Assembly (NCBI GenBank): GCA_964394405.1
Contig: CAYMVY010000001.1
Span: 102,546 to 166,545, forward strand
DNA: 64,000 nucleotides
DNA from: an uncultured Gammaproteobacteria bacterium
GTDB taxonomy: Bacteria; Patescibacteriota; Patescibacteriia; Magasanikbacterales; UBA922
Reading direction: 5' to 3'
The translations under genes and the position numbers were made by a program. The notes beneath the pieces are model-generated. The model worked only from the letters and a program-made list of their open reading frames with translations. It was not told the origin of the DNA and made no database searches. Below are positions 1,002 through 59,153 of the stretch, one piece after another; the first letter of the stretch is position 1, and every line of letters starts with the position of its first letter.

Positions 1002-1072
1002 ATAAACTCAAAACGTAAAATTCAAAAGTAAAAACTATAACTAAAAACTAAAATTTGAACGTTACGTTTTGA
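1002..1072. repeat. Perfect 15-bp inverted repeat (aaactcaaaacgtaa ... ttacgttttgagttt) flanking about 41 nt; member of the TTTTGAGTTTT dispersed repeat family
   Basis: Read directly from the sequence. Related motifs occur at 20867-20920, 30750-30788, 36374-36490 and 59044-59083. Confidence 0.7.
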
Positions 1073-1085
1073 GTTTATCTGTTCG

Positions 1086-5962: not shown

Positions 5963-8836
5963 ATGAAACAAAATGACACCATAAAAATTGTTAATGCACG
6001 GGTACACAATCTCAAAAATGTATCGCTTGAAATTCCAAAAAACAAATTAGTCGTTATTACCGGTCTCTCTGGTTCGGGTAAATCTTCCCTCGCATTCGAC
6101 ACCATCTACGCCGAAGGACAGAGAAGATATGCCGAGAGTCTGAACGCGTATGCCCGCCAATTTATGGATATGCAGGATAAGCCAGACGCAGATGAAATTT
6201 CCGGCCTCTCTCCAACCATTGCAATAAATCAAAGAAATACGACCCAAAACCCACGTTCCACCGTGGGTACTGCAACTGAAATCTATGATTATCTCCGCCT
6301 ATTATTCGCGCGAATTGGAGTACAGTGGTGCCCTGCATGCAATATTCCCGTAACATCCTACAAACCCGGGGTCATCGTAGAAAAAATAAGAACATTGGGT
6401 AAAAAATCTCCCAACGCAGTATTACTCTCCCCTATTATCAGACAAGAGTCTATTACTACTAAGGAGCTGAAACATCGAGTAGAAAAGACCGGGTATCCTT
6501 CAGTACGATTAAACGGAATTGAAACTTCAGTAAAACAAATCCCCTCAGTCACACTCAACCCCTCGTACACCTATGATGTTGAAATTATTATCGGGGAACT
6601 CAAAAATCTACTCAAAGAATCATTTACCAAGCACGTACTCAAAGCACTCGACTTCTCAAACGGCTATATCACTCTCTATGATCCAGACACGGAAAAAGAA
6701 ATTTCTTTTTCCGAAGTACCCATGTGCAGTTCATGTAGCAGAACATTTTCGCATATTGAACCACGGTCTTTTAGCTTCAATAGCCCCTACGGCGCATGTC
6801 CGCGTTGTACTGGACTAGGGAAAACACTTGAAGTTGATCCAGAACTCGTCATTCCAAATCAAAAACTCACGATTAGCGAAGGGGCGGTACAGCCATGGAC
6901 ACGACTGGTCGGAAATAATACTGGACTCATGGAAATCCTGACCGAAGTGGCAGGAGTACATGGATTTTCACTCGATCGACCAATTGAGGAATTACCCCAG
7001 GCAACCATGGATATTATTCTCTATGGTACCGATGGACAGGAATACATAGTCAAAGGTAAAAAAACAAATTACGAGGGTGTAATCCCAAATCTCACTGCGC
7101 GGTATATTGAAACCAAATCAGAATATGTAAAAAAAGAAATCGAAGTATACATGCGTGAAAAACCATGCTCAGTCTGTGACACCAAACGTCTCAAAGAAGA
7201 TAGTCTAAATATCAAAATCACCGACTACTCAATAGCAGATGTAGCCGAAATGAGTCTCGAGGAATCATACGAAATATTCAAATCCCTTGAAACCCAAAAC
7301 TCAGCACTTGCAAAAAAACTCTCCAGCGATGAACGAACCATCGCAAAACCTATCGCGCTTGAAATCAGACGACGTATTGAACATCTACTCGATGTCGGTC
7401 TCGCCTATCTCACACTCGATCGATCACTGAATACACTCTCGGGTGGAGAATCACAGCGTGTCCGACTCTCGACACAGCTCTCAGCAGGGCTCTCAGGACT
7501 CATCTATATCCTTGACGAGCCTTCAATTGGACTTCATCCAAAAGATAATGGAAAACTCATCAATACGCTGATTTCACTTCGTGATGCCGGAAATACCGTA
7601 ATCGTGGTTGAACACGACAAGGCAATTATGCAGGCTGCCGATTATCTGATTGATATTGGCCCTGGAGCCGGAGAGTATGGTGGAGTGGTCATGGCTTCAG
7701 GTACTCCTGAACGAGTGATCAAGTCAGACAAATCTCTCACAGGCAGATATCTCTCCGGAGCTGAAGAAATAAAGCCGTTGGGAAAATTACGCAAAGGTAG
7801 TGGGAAAAAACTGACTATTCTTGGTGCAAAGGCTAACAACCTCAAAAATATTGATGTTGATATTCCGCTAGCCATGTTTGTGAGTATTACCGGTGTGTCT
7901 GGTTCAGGAAAATCAACACTCATTCTCGATATCTTAGGAAAAACACTTGAAAAGAAATTTTATCGCGCAAAAGATGAACCTGGTGAGCACAAAGATATCA
8001 AAGGACTATCAAATATTGATAAAGTCATTGCAATTGATCAAACCCCAATTGGACGAACTCCACGTAGTAACCCAGTTACCTATACTGGTATATTTACCAT
8101 GATTCGCGATCTCTACGCAGAGCTTCCAGAATCAAAAATGCGCGGATACCAGGCAGGCACATTTAGCTTCAATGTAAAGGGCGATGGGCGCTGTGAAGCA
8201 TGTGGCGGAGAAGGATATGTCACTATTCCCATGCATTTCTTGAACGATGTATTTGTCGAGTGTGGTGAATGTCATGGTACCCGCTATACGAGAGATGTAC
8301 TCGAGATCCACTACAAAGAAAAAAACATTGCTGAAGTCCTCAAAATGACCGTAGAAGAAGCATTCAAATTTTTCCAAGGAAAGACCCCAATCACTGATAA
8401 GCTCCAAATACTTCGAAATGTAGGTCTTGGATACGTCCAGCTGGGACAACCTGCCACCACCCTCTCGGGTGGAGAAGCGCAGAGAATCAAACTCGCAACC
8501 GAATTATCACGTCGATCAACTGGTAAAACTATCTATATTCTTGATGAACCTTCAACTGGTCTTCATTTCGAAGATATCAAAAAACTCCTACATGTGCTTC
8601 ACCAACTCGTGGATAAGGGAAATACCGTATTAGTGATCGAACACAATCTCGACATTATCAAATGTTCTGACTGGATTATTGATTTGGGCCCTGGAGGCGG
8701 AAAACATGGTGGTCGCGTAGTTGGATCAGGAACTCCAGATCAGATTCTCAAATCAAAAGAAAGTCTCACTGCAGAATATCTCAAAAAAGAACTAACCCAG
8801 CAAAGTAAAAAGGGGAAAGTAAAAAGGGGAAAGTAA
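5963..8836 (+). CDS. uvrA: Excinuclease ABC subunit A
   Basis: 957 aa. Two ABC modules ([23 protein letters not shown]; second Walker [11 protein letters not shown]), zinc-finger CxxC pairs and the LSGGE signature twice. Confidence 0.95.
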
Positions 8837-8851
8837 AAAATCAAGAAATAA

Positions 8852-8890
8852 AAAATGCACGGGAAATTTTCACGTGCATTTTCTTTTAAC
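8852..8890. terminator. Bidirectional rho-independent terminator between convergent uvrA and rplS
   Basis: Hairpin atgcacg-ggaaattttca-cgtgcat flanked by A-run and T-run. Confidence 0.5.
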
Positions 8891-8900
8891 TTTTTCGTTT

Positions 8901-9233
8901 TTACTTTTTACCTTCTTTTACTTCTTTAAGTTTCTTCTTATAGTCTCGGAGGAAGTAAGGTCGAGATTTTCGTACATGCATAGCACGTACGAGTTCAATT
9001 TTTTCTACCACTGGGGAATTAATTGGGAAAATCTTTTCCACGCCGATACCGTCTGAAACTTTGCGAACGGTAATGGTTGCTCCAGTCTCAGCACCATGTT
9101 TGACCGCAAGTACAATTCCTTCAAAGATCTGAATACGTTCCTTTTCTTCGCCTTTAGTATTCAATTCTTTAATTTTTTGATGAACTTTGACGATCATTCC
9201 TGACTTAACTTCATGTCTAATATCTGTTGACAT
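8901..9233 (-). CDS. rplS: 50S ribosomal protein L19
   Basis: [26 protein letters not shown] matches the L19 signature. Confidence 0.9.
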
Positions 9234-10881: not shown

Positions 10882-10895
10882 ACTAGAATATAGTG

Positions 10896-10969
10896 TAGGC
10901 CTAGATGGACTCGAACCATCGACCCCAACGTTATAAGCGTTGTGCTCTAACCACCTGAGCTATAGGCCC
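10896..10969 (-). tRNA. tRNA-Ile with anticodon UAU
   Basis: Reverse complement GGGCCTATAGCTCAGGTGGTTAGAGCACAACGCTTATAACGTTGGGGTCGATGGTTCGAGTCCATCTAGGCCTA. Anticodon arm is CAACG-CTTATAA-CGTTG; the body closely resembles bacterial tRNA-Ile. Confidence 0.75.
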
Positions 10970-12231: not shown

Positions 12232-12357
12232 ATGCCAGCAAAAAGAAAACGCAAGGCAGCAGCTCCAAAAAAGCGCAAAGCAGCTAAAAGAAAGCCAGCT
12301 AAACGCAAAGCTGCTCGAAAGCCAGCTAAACGCCGCAAAGCCTCAAAGAAAAGATAG
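12232..12357 (+). CDS. 41-aa lysine/arginine/alanine-rich basic protein (histone H1/Hc1-like PAKRK repeats)
   Basis: MPAKRKRKAAAPKKRKAAKRKPAKRKAARKPAKRRKASKKR. Consensus SD upstream and a perfect terminator immediately downstream. Confidence 0.55.
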   Translation: MPAKRKRKAAAPKKRKAAKRKPAKRKAARKPAKRRKASKKR

Positions 12358-19145: not shown

Positions 19146-21011
19146 CTACTCTACCGTAACACTTTTTGCCAAATTCCGTGGCCGATCTACATCCCGACCT
19201 AGTGCAACCGCAATTTCATAGGCAAAAATCTGGAGCGGGAGTGTATTAATCAACGGTTGCAATAATTCCATGGTCTCAGGAACATAGATCACATCGTCTG
19301 CCAATAATTGTGCAGACTCATCTCCCTCAGTCGCAATCAATAATAGCCGTGCTCCCCGGGCGCGAACCTCTTCTACGTTACTCCGCATTTTTTCATACAA
19401 TTGATCCTTGGTCATAATCGCCAAAACTGGAAAATCTTTTGAAAGAAGCGCGATCGGACCATGCTTCATCTCTCCCCCCGGATACCCTTCACTATGAATA
19501 TATGCGATTTCTTTAAGCTTGAGCGATCCTTCCAGAGCTATAGGGTAATTGATCCCTCGACCAAGGAAATACATATTCTTGTAATCCTTATACTGGAGTG
19601 CAAACTGTTTGATTTTTTCACGTTCATTCAATACTTGGTTCATTTTCCGTGGTACTTCAAGCAACGCTTTAAGTATTCGTTGACCCGTAGCCGGGGTAAG
19701 CCGTTTCAGTCGACCAAACTGAAGCGCGTAGAGAGTAAGTATCGCAACCATATTCGTATATGCTTTGGTCGAAGCAACAGCAAGCTCAGGACCTGCATGG
19801 ATATACGTTCCCCCATCTGTCTCTCTTGCAATAGTTGATCCGACCACATTCACAATTCCACGAACAAACGCACCTTTTCGTTTTGCTTCCCGAAGCGCCG
19901 CAAGCGTGTCTGCTGTTTCTCCAGATTGTGAAATACCAAACACCAATGTTTCATTATCAATAATCGGATCTCGATACCGAAATTCGCTTGCAACATCAAC
20001 CTCCGTCGGAATACCTGCAAGGCGTTCAAAGGCATACTTCCCCACCTGACCTGCATACGAAGCAGTACCACACGCGATAAGGATGATACGCTTGATACTA
20101 CGCATCTCCGCGTCAGTCATATTGAGCCCGCCAAGCTTTGCAGTACCTTCAGTTATATCATACCGTCCACGAATCGCGTCTTCAAAAACCGTTGGCTGAT
20201 CAAAAATCTCTTTAATCATAAAATGTGGATACCCGCTCGTCTGAGCTTCAGCTTCGCTCCACTCAATCGTCGTCACCTCTTTGTCAACATGCGCATGGGT
20301 TCGAGAAAATGTTTCAAATGAATTCGAAGTAATGACTGCGAGTTCCCCATCATCAAGAAAAACCATCTGCGAGGTATAGGGTAATATTGGTGTCGCATCA
20401 CTTGCAACAAAATGTTCTCCCTCACCGACACCGATTACCAGCGGACTACCCATGCGAGCAGCAACAATCATATCCGGATGATCCGCATGAATCGCGACCA
20501 ATCCATAAGTCCCACGTACATGTGTGAGCGCTGTCTCAACAGCCGTGGTGAGATTTCCCGAATAGAATGAACCAATCAAATGGGCTAATACTTCAGTATC
20601 AGTTTCAGATACAAAATCAAAACCTTTTTTTTGAAGTTCATCTTTCAATTCACGATAATTTTCAATAATGCCGTTATGACAAATAGCCAGTTTACCACCC
20701 AAAGAAACATGAGGATGCGCATTTTCTTCAGTCACTCCCCCATGTGTCGCCCATCTCGTGTGTGCAATACCCAAAATGCTGGTTAAATCATAATCCTTTA
20801 CCTTTTGTGCAAGGTTCTCAATTTTACCAACTGAACGAACTCTGGTAATTACAGTATCAGTATTTTCGTTTTGAGTTTTGAGTTTTGAGTTTTGACTTTG
20901 CAGGACTGCAAGTCCTGCACTATCATACCCTCGATATTCGAGACGACGCAGTCCCTGAATAAGGACAGGTAACACTTCCCGCTTTCCAATATACCCGACA
21001 ATACCGCACAT
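19146..21011 (-). CDS. glmS: Glutamine--fructose-6-phosphate aminotransferase
   Basis: MCGIVGYIG N-terminal nucleophile, SIS domains and C-terminal ...KSVTVE. Contains an in-frame repeat-derived insertion (see repeat at 20867-20920). Confidence 0.95.
   Translation of the reverse strand: MCGIVGYIGKREVLPVLIQGLRRLEYRGYDSAGLAVLQSQNSKLKTQNENTDTVITRVRSVGKIENLAQKVKDYDLTSILGIAHTRWATHGGVTEENAHPHVSLGGKLAICHNGIIENYRELKDELQKKGFDFVSETDTEVLAHLIGSFYSGNLTTAVETALTHVRGTYGLVAIHADHPDMIVAARMGSPLVIGVGEGEHFVASDATPILPYTSQMVFLDDGELAVITSNSFETFSRTHAHVDKEVTTIEWSEAEAQTSGYPHFMIKEIFDQPTVFEDAIRGRYDITEGTAKLGGLNMTDAEMRSIKRIILIACGTASYAGQVGKYAFERLAGIPTEVDVASEFRYRDPIIDNETLVFGISQSGETADTLAALREAKRKGAFVRGIVNVVGSTIARETDGGTYIHAGPELAVASTKAYTNMVAILTLYALQFGRLKRLTPATGQRILKALLEVPRKMNQVLNEREKIKQFALQYKDYKNMYFLGRGINYPIALEGSLKLKEIAYIHSEGYPGGEMKHGPIALLSKDFPVLAIMTKDQLYEKMRSNVEEVRARGARLLLIATEGDESAQLLADDVIYVPETMELLQPLINTLPLQIFAYEIAVALGRDVDRPRNLAKSVTVE
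20867..20920. repeat. Tandem gttttga x4 followed by palindrome tgcaggactgcaagtcctgca, embedded in-frame in glmS (encodes ...LQSQNSKLKTQNEN...)
   Basis: Read directly from the sequence. Same motif family as the intergenic repeats at 1002, 30750, 36374 and 59044. Confidence 0.75.
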
Positions 21012-30752: not shown

Positions 30753-30788
30753 TTTTGAGTTTTGAAATTTTAGTTTTGAATTTGAAAT
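30750..30788. repeat. tagttttgagttttgaaattttagttttgaatttgaaat (family A repeat)
   Basis: Read directly from the sequence. Confidence 0.65.
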
Positions 30789-32023: not shown

Positions 32024-32115
32024 ATGCAGAGCCTAACACAATTTTTCCCATAACGTCAAACAAAAAATCCGCGTTGAGCGGAAAATTTTGGCAAACAAAA
32101 AACTGAGTACAGAAT

Positions 32116-32221
32116 CTAGGCGCCGACCTACTCTCGCCTTGCGACTACCATTGGCGCTGAAGGGCTTAACTGCCGTGTTCGGGATGAGAACGGGTGGACC
32201 CCCTTCGCAAAAAGCACCTAG
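32116..32221 (-). rRNA. rrf: 5S rRNA
   Basis: Minus-strand sequence ...GGTCCACCCGTTCTCATCCCGAACACGGCAGTTAAGCCCTTCAGCGCCAATGGTAGTCGCAAGGCGAGAGTAGGTCGGCGCCTAG matches the 5S consensus (CCGAAC, GGTAGT, AGAGTAGG). Confidence 0.8.
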
Positions 32222-32284: not shown

Positions 32285-35650
<3,366 letters not shown>

Positions 35651-36090: not shown

Positions 36091-36369
36091 TTATCTGTGT
36101 GGATAAAAACGCACGGTCGTAGAACCTCCATGAGAGTCCAAAAAAAAGGCTTCAATCAGCGGATTTTGACTCAGTTCTTCTTCGATAATCCCTGCCAAAA
36201 CCCCTTCCCCAACCCCATGTACAATGCGACAAAAATCGCACTTATTCACAACTAGTCTATTCAGTTCAAAATTTAATTTTTCTCGCACTTCACTAGCCTG
36301 AAAACCATGCAGATCAATCACGGGAATATTTTGTAAGTGTTCAAAGAATTGTGTGTCGATGCGAGACAT
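36091..36369 (-). CDS. Smr-domain protein
   Basis: IDLHGFQASEVREKL...VVNKCDFCRIVHGVGEGVL, the Smr signature. A minus-strand hairpin plus T-run at about 35860-35890 lies downstream. Confidence 0.7.
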   Translation of the reverse strand: MSRIDTQFFEHLQNIPVIDLHGFQASEVREKLNFELNRLVVNKCDFCRIVHGVGEGVLAGIIEEELSQNPLIEAFFLDSHGGSTTVRFYPHR

Positions 36370-36373
36370 GTTA

Positions 36374-36490
36374 CAAAATCAAAAGTTACTGTAATTCAAA
36401 ACTCAAATGTCAAAACGCAAAACCAAAATTCAAATCTTAAAACTTTTAGTTTCAGTTTTGAGCTTTGAGTTTTTACTTTTGAGTTTAATA
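36374..36490. repeat. Extended block of family A repeats (caaaactcaaatgtcaaaacgcaaaaccaaaattcaaatc ... cagttttgagctttgagtttttacttttgagttt)
   Basis: Read directly from the sequence. Both orientations of the aaactcaaa/tttgagttt unit occur in about 115 nt. Confidence 0.7.
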
Positions 36491-36600
36491 TATGTCTACT
36501 GAAAACCATTGTAAAAATGATTTACATGAGACAGTTGGGGACTCCGGCGCGAACGCTGGAATCCCCACCCCCCATCATGCGCGTAGTCGCGCAGACCTGA

Positions 36601-45797: not shown

Positions 45798-45925
45798 CTA
45801 CAGTAATCAAACAAACAGGTCATCTTAGGCCTGTTTTTGTTTACTAATTACCGCTATACTGAAGCTTAATGGAACACGGATTAAACAGAATCCCACAGAA
45901 TCGAAACTGAATTAAAATTCCTTTT

Positions 45926-45953
45926 GACTTTATAGACTTTCCGACTTTCGACG
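45926..45953. repeat. Family C repeat GACTTTATAGACTTTCCGACTTTCGACG
   Basis: Other copies at 47791-47827 and 48541-48572. Confidence 0.7.
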
Positions 45954-45961
45954 TATCTACT

Positions 45962-47026
45962 ATGATTCAAAAATATCAGGACCTCAAAACAAAATACCTC
46001 TCCCTCGAAACAGATCTGCAAAATCCTGTGATTCTTGGTGATCAACAAAAATTAAAATCAGTATCTCAGGAATATAATGAACTGAAATCCGTAGTTGAAT
46101 ATATTACTGAATTAGAAAAGATTGAATCGACTATCAGTGAATACGAAGCATTGATCAAGGCCGAAGAGGACAAAGATCTCACCTCTCTTGCAGAATCAGA
46201 ACTTCCCGGGCTTATTGCACAAAGAGAGTCTCTCGAAAAAACACTCGCAGAGCTCACCCGACCAAGCGATCCAATGGACAAAAAAAATGTAATTATTGAA
46301 ATCCGTGCAGGAGCTGGTGGAGACGAAGCAGCACTATTCGCAGGAGATTTACTCCGCATGTACATGCGCTATGCAGAAAATAAAAAATGGAAAACAGCTC
46401 TTATCAGTGAGCACCAAATTGGAATCGGTGGATACAAAGAAGTAGTATTTTCAATCGAAGGGAGCGGTGTGTACAAGGACATGAAATATGAAATGGGCGT
46501 ACACCGCGTACAGAGAATCCCAGAAACAGAAAAAAGTGGACGAATCCACACCTCGACTGCAAGTGTAGTGGTGCTTCCTGAAGTAGAAGAAACTGAAATC
46601 GAAATCAATCCAAAAGATCTTCGTATTGACACCTTCATGGCAGGAGGAAAAGGTGGACAGAGTGTCAACACCACCTACTCTGCCGTACGTATCGTACATA
46701 TCCCAAGTGGCATGGTAGTACAATGCCAGGATGAACGATCTCAAACACAAAACAAAATTAAAGCCATGAACGTGCTGCGCGCACGACTCTATGAAATGGA
46801 GCGAGAGAAAAAACAAGCAGCAATTGACGCCAAACGCAAAAACCAAATTGGTTCTGGCGACCGCAGTGAAAAAATCCGCACCTACAATGTTCCCCAGGAT
46901 CGGATTACTGACCACCGAATTCACCAAAGTTGGAACAACATTCCGGAAATCCTCAATGGAAAATTGGACCCAGTAATCGAGGCACTGAGAGTTGCTGATT
47001 ATGCGGAAAAAGATGGTGAAATCTAA
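45962..47026 (+). CDS. prfA: Peptide chain release factor 1
   Basis: GGQ motif ([35 protein letters not shown]). Confidence 0.95.
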
Positions 47027-47033
47027 AAAATCT

Positions 47034-47960
47034 ATGCCCCTGCAGTCAATACAACAGTTGCAAAAATGGGGGAAGAATTATATCGACCGAGCCGAGGTCG
47101 ATATTCTTATTGCGCATGTACTTAAAAAAACAAAAGAATTTATTATTGCGCATCCGGAATATAAAATTTCGAAATTCAAAGAGTGGAAAATTAAAAGATT
47201 AATTACAAAGCGAGCGAAAGGAATTCCAATCGCTTACCTAACAGGTTACAAAGAATTCTTTGGACTCGATTTTTTGGTAAACAAACATACCCTGATCCCA
47301 CGACCAGAGACTGAACTAATAGTTGAAGCTGTTCTTAGTGCGTTCCCTCCCCTCTTAGGGGAGGGACAGGGTGGGGTTGAGGGTCAAAGAAAAATAATCC
47401 TGATTGACATCGGCACCGGTTCCGGCTGCATACCTATCTCGATTCTCAAATCTTCCAATCTTCAATCTTCAATCTTGACCTACGCTACAGACATCTCCAA
47501 ACCAGCTCTTAAAATCGCTCGCAAAAACGCACAAATACACAACGTCGACATCACTTTTCTTCACGGCAATCTTCTCGAACCCTTCTTAAAAAACTATGAA
47601 CTATTGCCTGCCCGCCGTAGCTTAAGCGAAGGAGGGGCTACTGGGTACGAACTAGTCATTACTGCCAATCTCCCCTATCTTACCCAAGAACAATTTGATA
47701 CCGAGTCTACAATCCAGCACGAACCAATCGGAGCTCTCGTTACTGACGATGATGGATTACAACTATATAAAGAATTACTTGGTCAAATTAAAAAATTACT
47801 TTCGACTTTCGACTTTATAGACTTTACGACTTTTTTTGAAATCGACCCTTCTCAAACTGAAAAGCTTTCAAATTATATCCAAACAATTTTTCCAAACTCA
47901 AAAATAGAAATCATCAAAGATGGAATGAAAAATGATCGAGTAGCAAAGATCTCACGATAA
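47034..47960 (+). CDS. prmC: Release factor glutamine N5-methyltransferase PrmC/HemK, carrying two in-frame repeat insertions
   Basis: IDIGTGSGCI SAM motif and NLPY (NPPY-type) catalytic motif. The ORF in the track starts at TTG 46992, overlapping prfA. ATG 47034 (MPLQSIQQ...) aligns with the canonical PrmC N-terminus. Confidence 0.85.
   Translation: MPLQSIQQLQKWGKNYIDRAEVDILIAHVLKKTKEFIIAHPEYKISKFKEWKIKRLITKRAKGIPIAYLTGYKEFFGLDFLVNKHTLIPRPETELIVEAVLSAFPPLLGEGQGGVEGQRKIILIDIGTGSGCIPISILKSSNLQSSILTYATDISKPALKIARKNAQIHNVDITFLHGNLLEPFLKNYELLPARRSLSEGGATGYELVITANLPYLTQEQFDTESTIQHEPIGALVTDDDGLQLYKELLGQIKKLLSTFDFIDFTTFFEIDPSQTEKLSNYIQTIFPNSKIEIIKDGMKNDRVAKISR
47344..47386. repeat. Family B palindromic repeat (TTCCCTCCCCTCTTAGGGGAGGGACAGGGTGGGGTTGAGGGTC) inserted in-frame in prmC (encodes ...FPPLLGEGQGGVEGQ...)
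   Basis: Near-identical to 27767-27800. Confidence 0.75.
47791..47827. repeat. Family C repeat (TTCGACTTTCGACTTTATAGACTTTACGACTTTTTT) inserted in-frame in prmC (encodes ...STFDFIDFTTFFE...)
   Basis: Read directly from the sequence. Confidence 0.7.
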
Positions 47961-48456: not shown

Positions 48457-48531
48457 AAGCCGCGGTTTCGAGTCAACCGCGGCTTCCATTTAAAAACAAA
48501 ATACCCTCGATAAATCAAGGGTATTTTTTAT
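48457..48531 (+). terminator. Tandem hairpins (aagccgcggtt-N-aaccgcggctt; ataccctcgataaatcaagggtat + T-run) terminating the GC-rich ORF
   Basis: Read directly from the sequence. Confidence 0.65.
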
Positions 48532-48540
48532 TTCTTTTTA

Positions 48541-48572
48541 CTTTCGACTTTATAGACTTTGCGACTTTTTAC
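48541..48572. repeat. Family C repeat CTTTCGACTTTATAGACTTTGCGACTTTTTAC
   Basis: Read directly from the sequence. Confidence 0.7.
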
Positions 48573-59030: not shown

Positions 59031-59043
59031 CTAAGTCAAAACG

Positions 59044-59083
59044 AAAAACTCAAAAGTAAAAACCGAGAACTCACATACAAAAA
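59044..59083. repeat. Family A repeat (gtcaaaacgaaaaactcaaaagtaaaaaccgagaactcac)
   Basis: Read directly from the sequence. Confidence 0.6.
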
Positions 59084-59153
59084 AATATATTTGGTTTAAA
59101 GTTTTGAATTAATGCTGTAAATGAGCTATACTAGTGGAAAATAATACCTTCAT

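Follow-up and report, generated by a model that had tools for sequence, protein, structure and literature searches.

Heptameric simple-sequence repeats (SSRs) form an over-represented SSR class in bacteria, exemplified by the STRR of Calothrix/Nostoc and GGGAATC of Xanthomonas; most lie between genes, their lengths differ among close relatives and some are arranged as inverted pairs, and period 7 is over-represented in bacteria generally (PMC4692102). A coding example is the 5'-AAGACTC-3' repeat of neuO (phage CUS-3, E. coli K1), which ranges from 3 to 53 units and leaves about two thirds of genomes phase-OFF (PMC13001214). The TAACTGA repeats of Beggiatoaceae, cyanobacteria and Bacteroidetes occur as 2–7 forward copies a few nucleotides upstream of start codons; as forward repeats stop all three frames, they are found within ORFs only in “reverse”, usually at tolerant positions (MacGregor 2015, PMC4679880). 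Two further systems place repeats in proteins: Rickettsia palindromic elements (RPEs), which are ~150-bp elements of defined families that each encode a conserved peptide (PMC10969869), and the tandem repeats of Borgs, which evolve fast, arise independently in ORFs and add disordered peptide segments (PMC9879509).

We analysed a 64,000-nucleotide stretch of DNA from a CPR bacterium of the Magasanikbacteria (hereafter the window), in which a heptamer array lies inside glmS (Table 1). The gene is normally essential and encodes a housekeeping enzyme. Our results suggest that this array is probably a coding heptanucleotide SSR, i.e. a small VNTR, and not an inserted mobile element. Its closest analogue is the neuO repeat: both are head-to-tail heptamers located towards the 5' end of a coding sequence; neuO is full length only at unit numbers divisible by three, with 7-aa steps (PMC13001214), and the in-frame glmS alleles also differ by three-unit multiples (7 aa); and the neuO unit is one base from the AAAACTC of glmS, the encoded heptads being almost identical (KTQDSRL in neuO, KTQNSKL in GlmS). 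Unlike neuO, the glmS tract has 4.6 units, belongs to a housekeeping enzyme and is internal to a hairpin of a folded domain, and none of the glmS homologues recovered is an OFF allele. The STRR and GGGAATC repeats and the TTTTGAT heptads of the V. cholerae ctxAB promoter, which are one base from TTTTGAG and act in promoter regulation (10.1101/2021.05.14.444153), are non-coding, whereas glmS is notable for its coding copy and its 7-aa ladder. Borg repeats resemble the glmS array as independently arisen ORF tandem repeats that yield disordered segments, but they belong to an archaeal extrachromosomal element and not to a small CPR chromosome, and the 7-bp unit of glmS, not being a multiple of three, imposes a three-unit filter.

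The heptamer array and the first hairpin of GlmS

The homologues of the window gene go by the name GlmS of Candidatus Magasanikbacteria and have the Pfam GATase/SIS domains, and E. coli GlmS structures match the window protein (E 2.5e-69). On the plus strand, TRF reports GTTTTGA x4.6 at 20868-20899 (96% matches, score 57). On the coding strand, three ACTCAAA units stand between the degenerate units AGTCAAA and ACGAAAA, and the whole is translated in frame as QSQNSKLKTQNEN; the lag-7 periodicity is significant against codon-order shuffles (P<2e-4). The in-frame tandem repeat claimed in the original prediction is therefore real, with the frame kept. The array is not confined to a single assembly: a Logan contig that was assembled independently codes for exactly the same protein.

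Table 1. Positions of the repeat-bearing features in the window
Feature	Position	Strand	Location or basis
heptamer array region with 17-nt perfect inverted repeat	1004..1076	.	tRNA-Leu 3' end to next minus-strand gene
glmS (glutamine--fructose-6-phosphate transaminase), 621 aa	19146..21011	minus	ORF; Pfam GATase/SIS homologues
codons for residues 38-54, extended tip of first beta-hairpin	20850..20900	minus	HMMER + AlphaFold2
heptanucleotide tandem array in glmS	20868..20899	minus	TRF period 7, lag-7 test, codon layout
perfect palindrome, 9-bp arms, 3-nt loop, not part of insert	20899..20919	.	SAGLAVL codons
T4N3 heptamer array	30753..30788	plus	entire 36-nt znuB-lgt spacer
imperfect palindrome of heptamer arrays	36374..36486	.	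divergent intergenic region; 43-nt arms, 72% complementary
41-nt CGACTTT-type repeat, copy 1 of 3	45910..45950	plus	ends ~10 nt before prfA (RF1) ATG
41-nt CGACTTT-type repeat, copy 2 of 3	47795..47835	plus	within prmC, in frame = LLSTFDFIDFTTFF
41-nt CGACTTT-type repeat, copy 3 of 3	48530..48570	plus	intergenic, 90% identical to copy 2
heptamer arrays TCAAAACGAAAAAC x2 and GTTTAAAGTTTTGA	59033..59107	.	divergent intergenic region

HMMER alignment to E. coli GlmS (1xff, 4amv) places a 12-residue insertion between G40 and H41, the extra residues being N41-D52 of the window protein (20856-20891); relative to the 606-608-aa Magasanikbacteria homologues the insertion is 13 residues, so the insert amounts to 36-39 bp. 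It lies at the tip of the first β-hairpin of the glutaminase domain. The AlphaFold2 model has strands at 31-37 and 55-61 and coil at 38-54, with pLDDT <50 at 45-50; together with the alignment, this puts the inserted residues at the surface of the protein and at a distance from the active site. These data agree with the earlier description of a short loop added in frame by a repeat: 12-13 residues at the hairpin tip, repeat-derived, variable among lineages and at a permissive surface position.

The same description joined the tandem to a palindrome. The tandem stands; the palindrome, TGCAGGACT gca AGTCCTGCA, sits in the codons for the conserved S-A-G-L-A-V-L, outside the insert. Its arms shrink to 5 bp in L001, 6 bp in L005 and 3-4 bp in L002 and L081 among the other long-loop genomes compared, and it is missing from L166 and L003 in the comparison of glmS DNA. 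Nor does the array fold as a palindromic element would: it is unpaired in the predicted mRNA, in both the minimum-free-energy and the centroid folds, and the sole predicted hairpin there is the 9-bp one within the SAGLAVL codons.

Loop lengths and repeat units among Magasanikbacteria

GlmS loop lengths form a ladder. Among the 120 Magasanikbacteria homologues listed, 94 have loops of 22-24 aa, 12 of 28-30 aa and 11 of 35-39 aa, with peaks at 23, 30 and 37 residues and none at 31-34 aa; the step of 7 aa equals 21 bp, or three heptamers. A metagenome scan with universally conserved GlmS peptides retrieved almost only relatives at ≤53% identity and added no Magasanikbacteria alleles. In eight of 12 long-loop genomes (the window, L001, L081, L082, L084, L007, L165 and L168) the loop DNA is significantly 7-periodic against codon-order shuffles, with units that differ from genome to genome; in short loops lag-7 periodicity is not significant, bar the borderline L004 (P=0.03) and L006 (P=0.05). 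Units at the loop in relatives include AGTCGAA, CGAATTC, CAACGAA, AAGATAC and CAGATAG, and the loop peptide sequence is not conserved between lineages.

Comparison of individual alleles reveals how these arrays differ. Arrays occupy the matching five-unit position in orthologues that are 84-92% identical; the window and L001 have the first and last units in common, and the inner units have been homogenised differently (ACTCAAA x3 vs AGTCGAA x2), which implies that the exact match of the window array to an intergenic 14-mer arose inside the array. Within the array, exactly CGAAAATCAAAAGTCGAAAAT (21 bp) separates L081 from L002, and the loops of P0004, P0005 and P0006 are of different lengths although the three are 97-98% identical elsewhere. 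In L165, whose loop array was built from local sequence, we find a perfect 14-mer duplication of sequence that is also present in the uninserted L004. Arrays at this position persist across lineages that are only ~70% identical.

No insert is present in P0003/L166, which outside the loop is the closest relative (96.3% identical). At the DNA level, the gene of the window matches that of L166 at 88-98% in most 100-column blocks and at 78-84% in five blocks, but at only 62-75% over the loop segment, where the window and L001 are 85% identical. These identities show that a segment of ~200 bp around the loop is mosaic; the gap coincides with it, which would account for the missing insert, and relatives at 92% identity carry the orthologous array. 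Loop haplotype and the helix that follows the hairpin vary together.

The in-frame ladder and the state of the tracts also bear on the possibility that the array is a contingency locus, at which slips of one or two units would switch glmS off and a compensating slip would restore amino-sugar synthesis, an arrangement that could be useful to a host-dependent CPR cell scavenging amino sugars. The architecture is like that of neuO, with a heptamer in the 5' coding sequence that gives ON only if the units are divisible by 3 (PMC13001214). Young perfect tracts are present in several lineages (window x4; L081, a 14-mer x2.5 at 100%; L168 x4 at 90%), which would argue for frequent slippage and therefore frequent frameshift variants. 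However, the glmS tracts have 4-5 units only, vs 3-53 in neuO; all 120 homologues listed have lengths that fit complete proteins, and every loop DNA examined is in frame; glmS is normally essential; and the tracts of many lineages are degenerate (L002, L005, L167), such that slippage is no longer possible. We regard a contingency locus as unlikely.

It is also conceivable that the protein itself was under selection, i.e. that a longer hydrophilic hairpin was favoured for oligomer contacts, regulation or partner binding and that the DNA periodicity was a mere route to it. The recurrence of long loops in many Magasanikbacteria lineages and their persistence at 84-92% identity, the co-varying helix, and the report that neuO activity rises with repeat number (PMC13001214) are in line with such adaptation, but 94 of the 120 homologues listed, including relatives at 96% identity, have the short loop, the peptide shows no conservation across lineages, and the model gives this segment as coil with low confidence; we consider this reading quite improbable.

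Intergenic heptamer arrays and the origin of the coding copy

The motif family was predicted to recur in at least four intergenic spots, and our count supports this: GTTTTGAGTTTTGA, with ≤2 mismatches allowed, has 17 matches in the window vs 1.76 expected (maximum among shuffles 5; 0 of 100 shuffles reach 17), clustered near 1022, 20868-95, 30752, 36396-36482 and 59036-59107, and similar T-rich heptamer arrays occupy at least four intergenic spots of the window. These “copies” are degenerate heptamer arrays with varying units and lengths and without common ends. In a maximum-order Markov analysis of 7-mer over-representation GTTTTGA was not outstanding as a single word, a result that is uninformative as its sub-words carry the same signal.

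The inverted repeat reported at 1002-1072 exists, with a perfect core of 17 nt (ATAAACTCAAAACGTAA / TTACGTTTTGAGTTTAT) instead of 15 bp, within 40-nt arms that are 78% complementary. The array in the znuB-lgt spacer stops 6 nt ahead of the lgt ATG, is without a Shine-Dalgarno-like sequence, holds the only other exact GTTTTGAGTTTTGA of the window and has orthologues in the same spacer of L084 and L081. The region at 36374..36486 consists of TCAAAAC-like x7 followed by GTTTTGA-like x5, each half being “forward” (T-rich) toward the start codon that it faces; the Smr-domain gene (36091..36369) begins 5 nt from the array. At 59033..59107, the second array, GTTTAAAGTTTTGA, overlaps a -35-like TTGAAT.

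These arrays share several traits with TAACTGA repeats: they lie forward near start codons (30753-30788 for lgt, 36374-36444 for the Smr gene and 45910-45950 for prfA), their coding copy occurs only in reverse, and Shine-Dalgarno sequences are rare downstream of them, matches of ≥4 nt to AGGAGGT being found in only 7 of the 67 genes and in none of the array-preceded genes. The unit, however, is not TAACTGA but T4N3 (GTTTTGA, TTTTTAC and CGACTTT types), degenerate and not one fixed heptamer; the host is a CPR bacterium; and the coding copy occupies a conserved enzyme loop and not a protein terminus. The window arrays are an analogue of TAACTGA repeats and not a member of that class. Most likely they are U-rich leader or promoter-proximal elements of a genome that rarely uses Shine-Dalgarno sequences, and what they share with the glmS array is most likely only a general heptamer-slippage bias and A/T richness.

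The identity of the coding unit with that of the intergenic arrays could instead mean that the site functions as DNA or RNA, the antisense GTTTTGA binding a heptamer factor of the intergenic arrays or driving an antisense transcript that regulates glmS. Such a role would be compatible with the binding of a regulator to TTTTGAT heptads in a Vibrio cholerae promoter (10.1101/2021.05.14.444153), with a weak promoter-like TTTGCA-18-TATCAT (9/12) on the plus strand at 20897-20926, and with the Rfam scan of the site, which found neither a glmS ribozyme nor any other RNA. But the promoter match is of chance-level quality, the scan of the glmS 5' region giving only 9-of-12 promoter matches and no terminator; the relatives' loop units are quite different, and several are unlike their own intergenic arrays; and the nearest relative is without the tract. 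A functional site of this kind is very unlikely. We compared loop units with intergenic arrays in 14-kb flanks at ≤2 mismatches, where A-rich 14-mers match everywhere as background and only extended clusters are meaningful (window x4, L007 x1). The L007 unit, CAGATAG, matches a CAGATAA array ~550 bp upstream in its own 5' leader, and the loop units of L082 and L084 have no match to arrays of their own genomes.

The window also holds a different repeat, of the CGACTTT type, in three copies. We considered its prmC copy as a cleaner case of a repeat within an ORF and rejected it: the repeat swaps a variable segment (+1 aa) and is not a clear insertion.

The original prediction likened the glmS insert to Rickettsia palindromic elements. 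On such a reading, a mobile element of the RPE or MITE kind, itself a dispersed palindrome, would have moved into the gene in frame. The motif is indeed enriched and dispersed, with related intergenic sequence; the closest relative is without the insert; the in-frame insert peptide lies in a surface loop of an intact metabolic enzyme, as RPE peptides do; and the 41-nt three-copy repeat has one copy inside prmC. Nevertheless, a mobile element is largely refuted and, in our judgement, exceedingly improbable. Where RPEs are ~150 bp long with a conserved peptide (PMC10969869), here there are 32 bp of 7-mers, a microsatellite without fixed length, consensus, element boundaries or element-wide hairpin; the array is unpaired, the only hairpin being in conserved codons; orthologous arrays at the same site differ in unit; loop lengths follow a 21-bp ladder; and the absence from L166 is accounted for by the mosaic segment.

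Proposed slippage, reading frame and significance

We infer that slippage generated the coding SSR in glmS. Replication slippage or unequal exchange between 7-bp units would repeatedly expand, contract and homogenise the array, and the first-hairpin loop of GlmS, being exposed and disordered, would tolerate extra hydrophilic residues, so that the extension is probably tolerated rather than needed. A 7-bp unit shifts the frame, and GlmS stays intact only when the net gain or loss is three units (21 bp, 7 aa); surviving alleles would therefore form the ladder of 23, 30 and 37 residues. Orientation is constrained in the same manner: TCAAAAC is stop-free in all frames and encodes SKLKTQN, whereas GTTTTGA gives TGA in all three frames, and this accounts for the coding copy being the intergenic type in reverse complement; only the A-rich orientation can code, and the T-rich GTTTTGA is the orientation observed upstream of start codons. 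Homologous recombination may also shift the ~200-bp loop-bearing segment between related lineages.

The propensity for period 7 extends beyond glmS. When one lag-score threshold is applied to all periods, 7 is the commonest tandem period in the window and in Magasanikbacteria loci, but non-CPR loci show the same mode, so the preference does not single out this genome. Of the period 7/14/21 arrays counted in 366 kb of Magasanikbacteria DNA, half are located within coding sequences, and a second gene (MJ0043_C family) has same-site coding arrays with different units in two genomes.

One observation speaks against slippage alone: the coding unit of the window is the exact reverse complement of its own commonest intergenic unit (linker GAG). 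Together with L007, this hints at a genome-specific link of coding and leader units that slippage alone does not predict, and an array that persists in an essential gene across ~70%-identical lineages could be selected rather than merely tolerated. A bolder proposal, to which we give little credence, is that Magasanikbacteria, and perhaps CPR bacteria widely, keep long-lived heptamer loci in housekeeping enzymes (GlmS, MJ0043_C-family, PrmC, Lgt), each at a fixed surface loop, with units that turn over per lineage and tend to match the genome's own 5'-leader arrays; this would imply a unit-specific process, such as templated copying or a heptamer-binding factor, or frameshift switches of core metabolism in host-dependent cells.

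In conclusion, glmS offers a clean natural case of protein evolution being shaped by a repeat unit whose length is not divisible by three: a 7-bp microsatellite in an essential, conserved enzyme gives rise to a quantised ladder of 7-residue loop steps across a candidate phylum. Among simple repeats, heptamer arrays predominate in these small genomes, both upstream of start codons and inside genes, and those who annotate CPR proteins should bear in mind that such inserts probably stem from slippage rather than from mobile elements or faulty assembly. Should the tracts turn out to change frame at appreciable rates, this would be the first hint that core metabolism is phase-variable in CPR bacteria.

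An in-frame heptanucleotide array in glmS

Our analysis confirms a repeat array inside glmS, in frame, as the original prediction had proposed: the coding strand reads AGTCAAA ACTCAAA ACTCAAA ACTCAAA ACGAAAA, the translation is Q-S-Q-N-S-K-L-K-T-Q-N-E-N, and an identical protein is encoded by a second, independently assembled contig. The names under which the closest GlmS homologues are listed point to a Candidatus Magasanikbacteria (CPR) bacterium as host. The palindrome assigned to the same insert does exist beside the array, but it sits within codons of the conserved S-A-G-L-A-V-L and is therefore not inserted sequence; the sole strong hairpin of the predicted glmS mRNA fold is the one in these conserved codons, and the array itself is single-stranded. 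Compared with E. coli GlmS (1xff, 4amv), the insertion comprises 12 residues (N41-D52, between G40 and H41). An AlphaFold2 model (60 homologues as input; mean pLDDT 81) places strands at residues 31-37 and 55-61 and coil at 38-54, with pLDDT below 50 at 45-50; the insert is thus predicted to lengthen the tip of the first β-hairpin of the glutaminase domain.

Loop lengths among the best 120 homologues, measured as the YDSAG-to-VGKI distance, form a ladder with a step of 7 residues, i.e. 21 bp or three heptamers: 22-24 residues in 94 homologues, 28-30 in 12 (peak at 30) and 35-39 in 11 (peak at 37), with no loop of 31-34 residues. We gathered the loop DNA of 21 Magasanikbacteria-like glmS loci and tested 7-periodicity against codon-order shuffles. 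It was significant in 8/12 long-loop genomes, each with a different unit (see table), and was not detected in short loops, bar two borderline cases (loci L004, P = 0.03, and L006, P = 0.05).

Our account, which we consider probable as a whole, is that of a heptanucleotide SSR: slippage and homogenisation would maintain the repeat in a permissive GlmS loop; the reading frame would filter changes to three-unit steps; stop codons would filter the array to its A-rich orientation; and recombination would now and then move it between lineages. The five-unit arrays of the window and locus L001 agree in their outermost units, and it is the homogenised inner units that differ; the exact match between the window tract and the intergenic 14-mer therefore arose within the array. 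The arrays of loci L081 and L002, whose corresponding GlmS proteins are 97-98% identical elsewhere, differ by a block of exactly 21 bp, and the L165 array is a duplication of sequence also found in L004, which is uninserted. Since the peptides are not conserved and relatives at 96% identity have a short loop, selection of the loop for protein function is quite unlikely; the extension is most likely a tolerated passenger.

The closest protein outside the loop, P0003 of locus L166 (96.3% identical), has a short loop. Its glmS DNA is 88-98% identical to that of the window in most 100-column blocks and 78-84% in five; in alignment columns 101-300 (the loop and following helix), identity falls to 62-75%, whereas that to L001, more distant elsewhere in glmS, is 85%. 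The loop-bearing segment is therefore mosaic. It spans window positions 20710-20910 (~200 bp, codons ~35-100), with ~90% identity to L166 outside. These alignments indicate that homologous recombination between lineages, and not excision of an element, would explain presence or absence of the insert. The original prediction of a mobile element like the Rickettsia palindromic elements (RPEs) is not supported: it fails on element definition, palindromy and comparative pattern; RPEs, of about 150 bp with a family consensus (PMC10969869), have only the outcome in common with the glmS array, and we regard this reading as extremely improbable.

Intergenic arrays and known heptamer systems

The 14-mer GTTTTGAGTTTTGA, with at most two mismatches, has 17 matches against 1.76 expected (0/100 shuffles reached 17), and these cluster at the four intergenic places originally named; the inverted repeat reported near 1002-1072 is also present, with a perfect core of 17 nt. 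The arrays consist of T-rich heptamers of T4N3 type (GTTTTGA, TTTTTAC, TTTTGAA); there is also a related type, CGACTTT (in the window, 11 on the plus strand and 0 on the minus strand). Several arrays, those preceding lgt, the Smr-domain gene and prfA, stop ~5-10 nt short of a start codon, with the T-rich strand as sense. A Shine-Dalgarno match of even 4 nt precedes only 7/67 called genes of the window and none of the array-preceded genes. In L084 and L081, the lgt spacer holds an orthologous array with the same ending (TTTGAAATATG) and other linkers; the spacer of L167 lacks it. A forward GTTTTGA run contains TGA in all three frames and the reverse unit TCAAAAC is stop-free in every frame, so a coding copy must be reverse-oriented, as seen.

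The palindrome of the divergent region reaches into both flanking start codons (both ATGTCT), and the plus-strand “gene” called there may do no more than mirror the start of the Smr gene. In L007 (5426-5489), a TATAAT box is followed at once by CAGATAA x3 and an inverted copy, a leader hairpin that leaves 10 nt to the start codon of a PFOR gamma-like gene; its unit also builds the glmS loop of that genome (there CAGATAG).

The closest analogue of the intergenic arrays is the TAACTGA repeats, which lie just upstream of start codons where Shine-Dalgarno sites are rare, with forward copies forming three-frame stops and reverse copies inside ORFs (PMC4679880). As the TTTTGAT heptads in the ctx promoter of V. 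cholerae demonstrate (10.1101/2021.05.14.444153), near-identical heptads can act as regulatory DNA sites. Identical glmS and non-coding units in the window and in L007 would fit a DNA or RNA site shared with the intergenic arrays, but this identity is not upheld in L082 or L084, and the match to an antisense promoter is weak; we judge either role very improbable. The closest analogue of the coding array is neuO, whose 5′ coding region carries AAGACTC repeats and which yields full-length protein only at unit numbers divisible by three (PMC13001214); its unit and that of glmS are one base apart and the encoded heptads nearly the same. Phase variation of glmS, for which this same architecture speaks, is nevertheless unlikely, as the tracts are short and every allele recovered is in frame.

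Heptamers in other genes and genomes

In a census of tandem periods (lag-score test, one threshold for all periods), period 7 was the commonest in 4/4 sequence sets: the window (2 arrays, tied with period 6), other Magasanikbacteria loci (5), other CPR loci (1, tied with several other periods) and non-CPR loci (9, vs. ≤3 for every other period). Across 366 kb of Magasanikbacteria DNA (coding fraction 0.85), 16/32 arrays of period 7, 14 or 21 lie inside coding sequences. Same-site arrays with different units occur in an MJ0043_C family gene of two genomes (orthologues 70% identical), which behaves in this respect just as the glmS loop does; glmS is thus a single case of a pattern general to this group.

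The second coding heptamer array of the window sits in a variable segment of prmC, 3′ of the SAM-binding motif. The 41-nt direct repeat (core CTTTYGACTTTATAGACTTTNCGACTTT; copies 68-90% identical) has its middle copy within prmC, where its in-frame translation is LLSTFDFIDFTTFF; at this site homologues carry LTTYN-LPLTTFF, and the window version is common to homologues P0122 and P0131. At a convergent gene pair (8797-8928), a 957-aa UvrA-like ORF has a C-terminal tail made of the 14-mer AAAGTAAAAAGGGG x2.7, the L19 gene has its C-terminus overlapped by inverted T-rich heptamers of TTTTTAC type, and a hairpin (ATGCACG...CGTGCAT) lies between the two arrays. A 41-aa Lys/Ala/Arg-rich ORF at 12232-12357 (MPAKRKRKAAAPKKRKAAKRKPAKRKAARKPAKRRKASKKR), made from a 21-bp repeat, is preceded by a strong GAGGAGG, among the very few clear Shine-Dalgarno sites of the window.

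Among RNA genes, the length of the 23S rRNA implies ~400 nt of insertion, and no 16S rRNA lies within the 64-kb window. The UAU isoleucine tRNA is unusual and reads AUA without lysidine modification.

Features and repeat arrays (window coordinates unless another locus is named; P values from codon-order shuffles)
Feature	Position	Repeat or content	Remarks
glmS	19146..21011, minus	621 aa	
glmS heptamer tract	20868-20899	GTTTTGA (plus-strand reading), four and a half copies	TRF period 7, 96% matches, score 57
Palindrome adjoining glmS array	20899-20919	9-bp arms	
glmS loop, window		ACTCAAA	P <2e-4
glmS loop, L001		AGTCGAA	P 0.004
glmS loop, L081		perfect 14-mer TCAAAAGTCGAAAA x2.5	P 0.001
glmS loop, L082		CAACGAA	P <2e-4
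glmS loop, L084		AAGATAC	P 0.02
glmS loop, L007		CAGATAG	P 2e-4
glmS loop, L165		perfect ATCAACGAACAATT x1.9	P 0.003
glmS loop, L168		CGAATTC x4	P <2e-4
Array upstream of lgt	30753-30788		fills whole 36-nt znuB-lgt spacer
Array before Smr-domain gene	gene start at 36369		
Divergent region	36364-36497	two T-rich heptamer arrays	long imperfect palindrome
Array before prfA	prfA at 45962		
41-nt direct repeat	45910-45950, 47795-47835, 48530-48570, all plus		three copies within 3 kb
prmC array	47449-47476	AATCTTC x3.9, 95% matches	encodes KSSNLQSSI
MJ0043_C-family array, L008	10735-10765	AACTCAG x4.4, perfect	encodes LRTQNSE
MJ0043_C-family array, L082	15232-15264	GGGAACA x4.7	
23S rRNA	32297-35639	3343 nt	2925-position model
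5S rRNA	32115-32221		adjoins 23S
tRNA-Ile	10895-10969	anticodon TAT	ARAGORN

In conclusion, the mechanism of the glmS array is conventional, and our literature search found no paper tying Magasanikbacteria to tandem repeats. The novelty lies in where the array occurs, within an essential enzyme of a CPR phylum, in the clean ladder of 7-residue steps and in the recurrence of arrays at orthologous sites.
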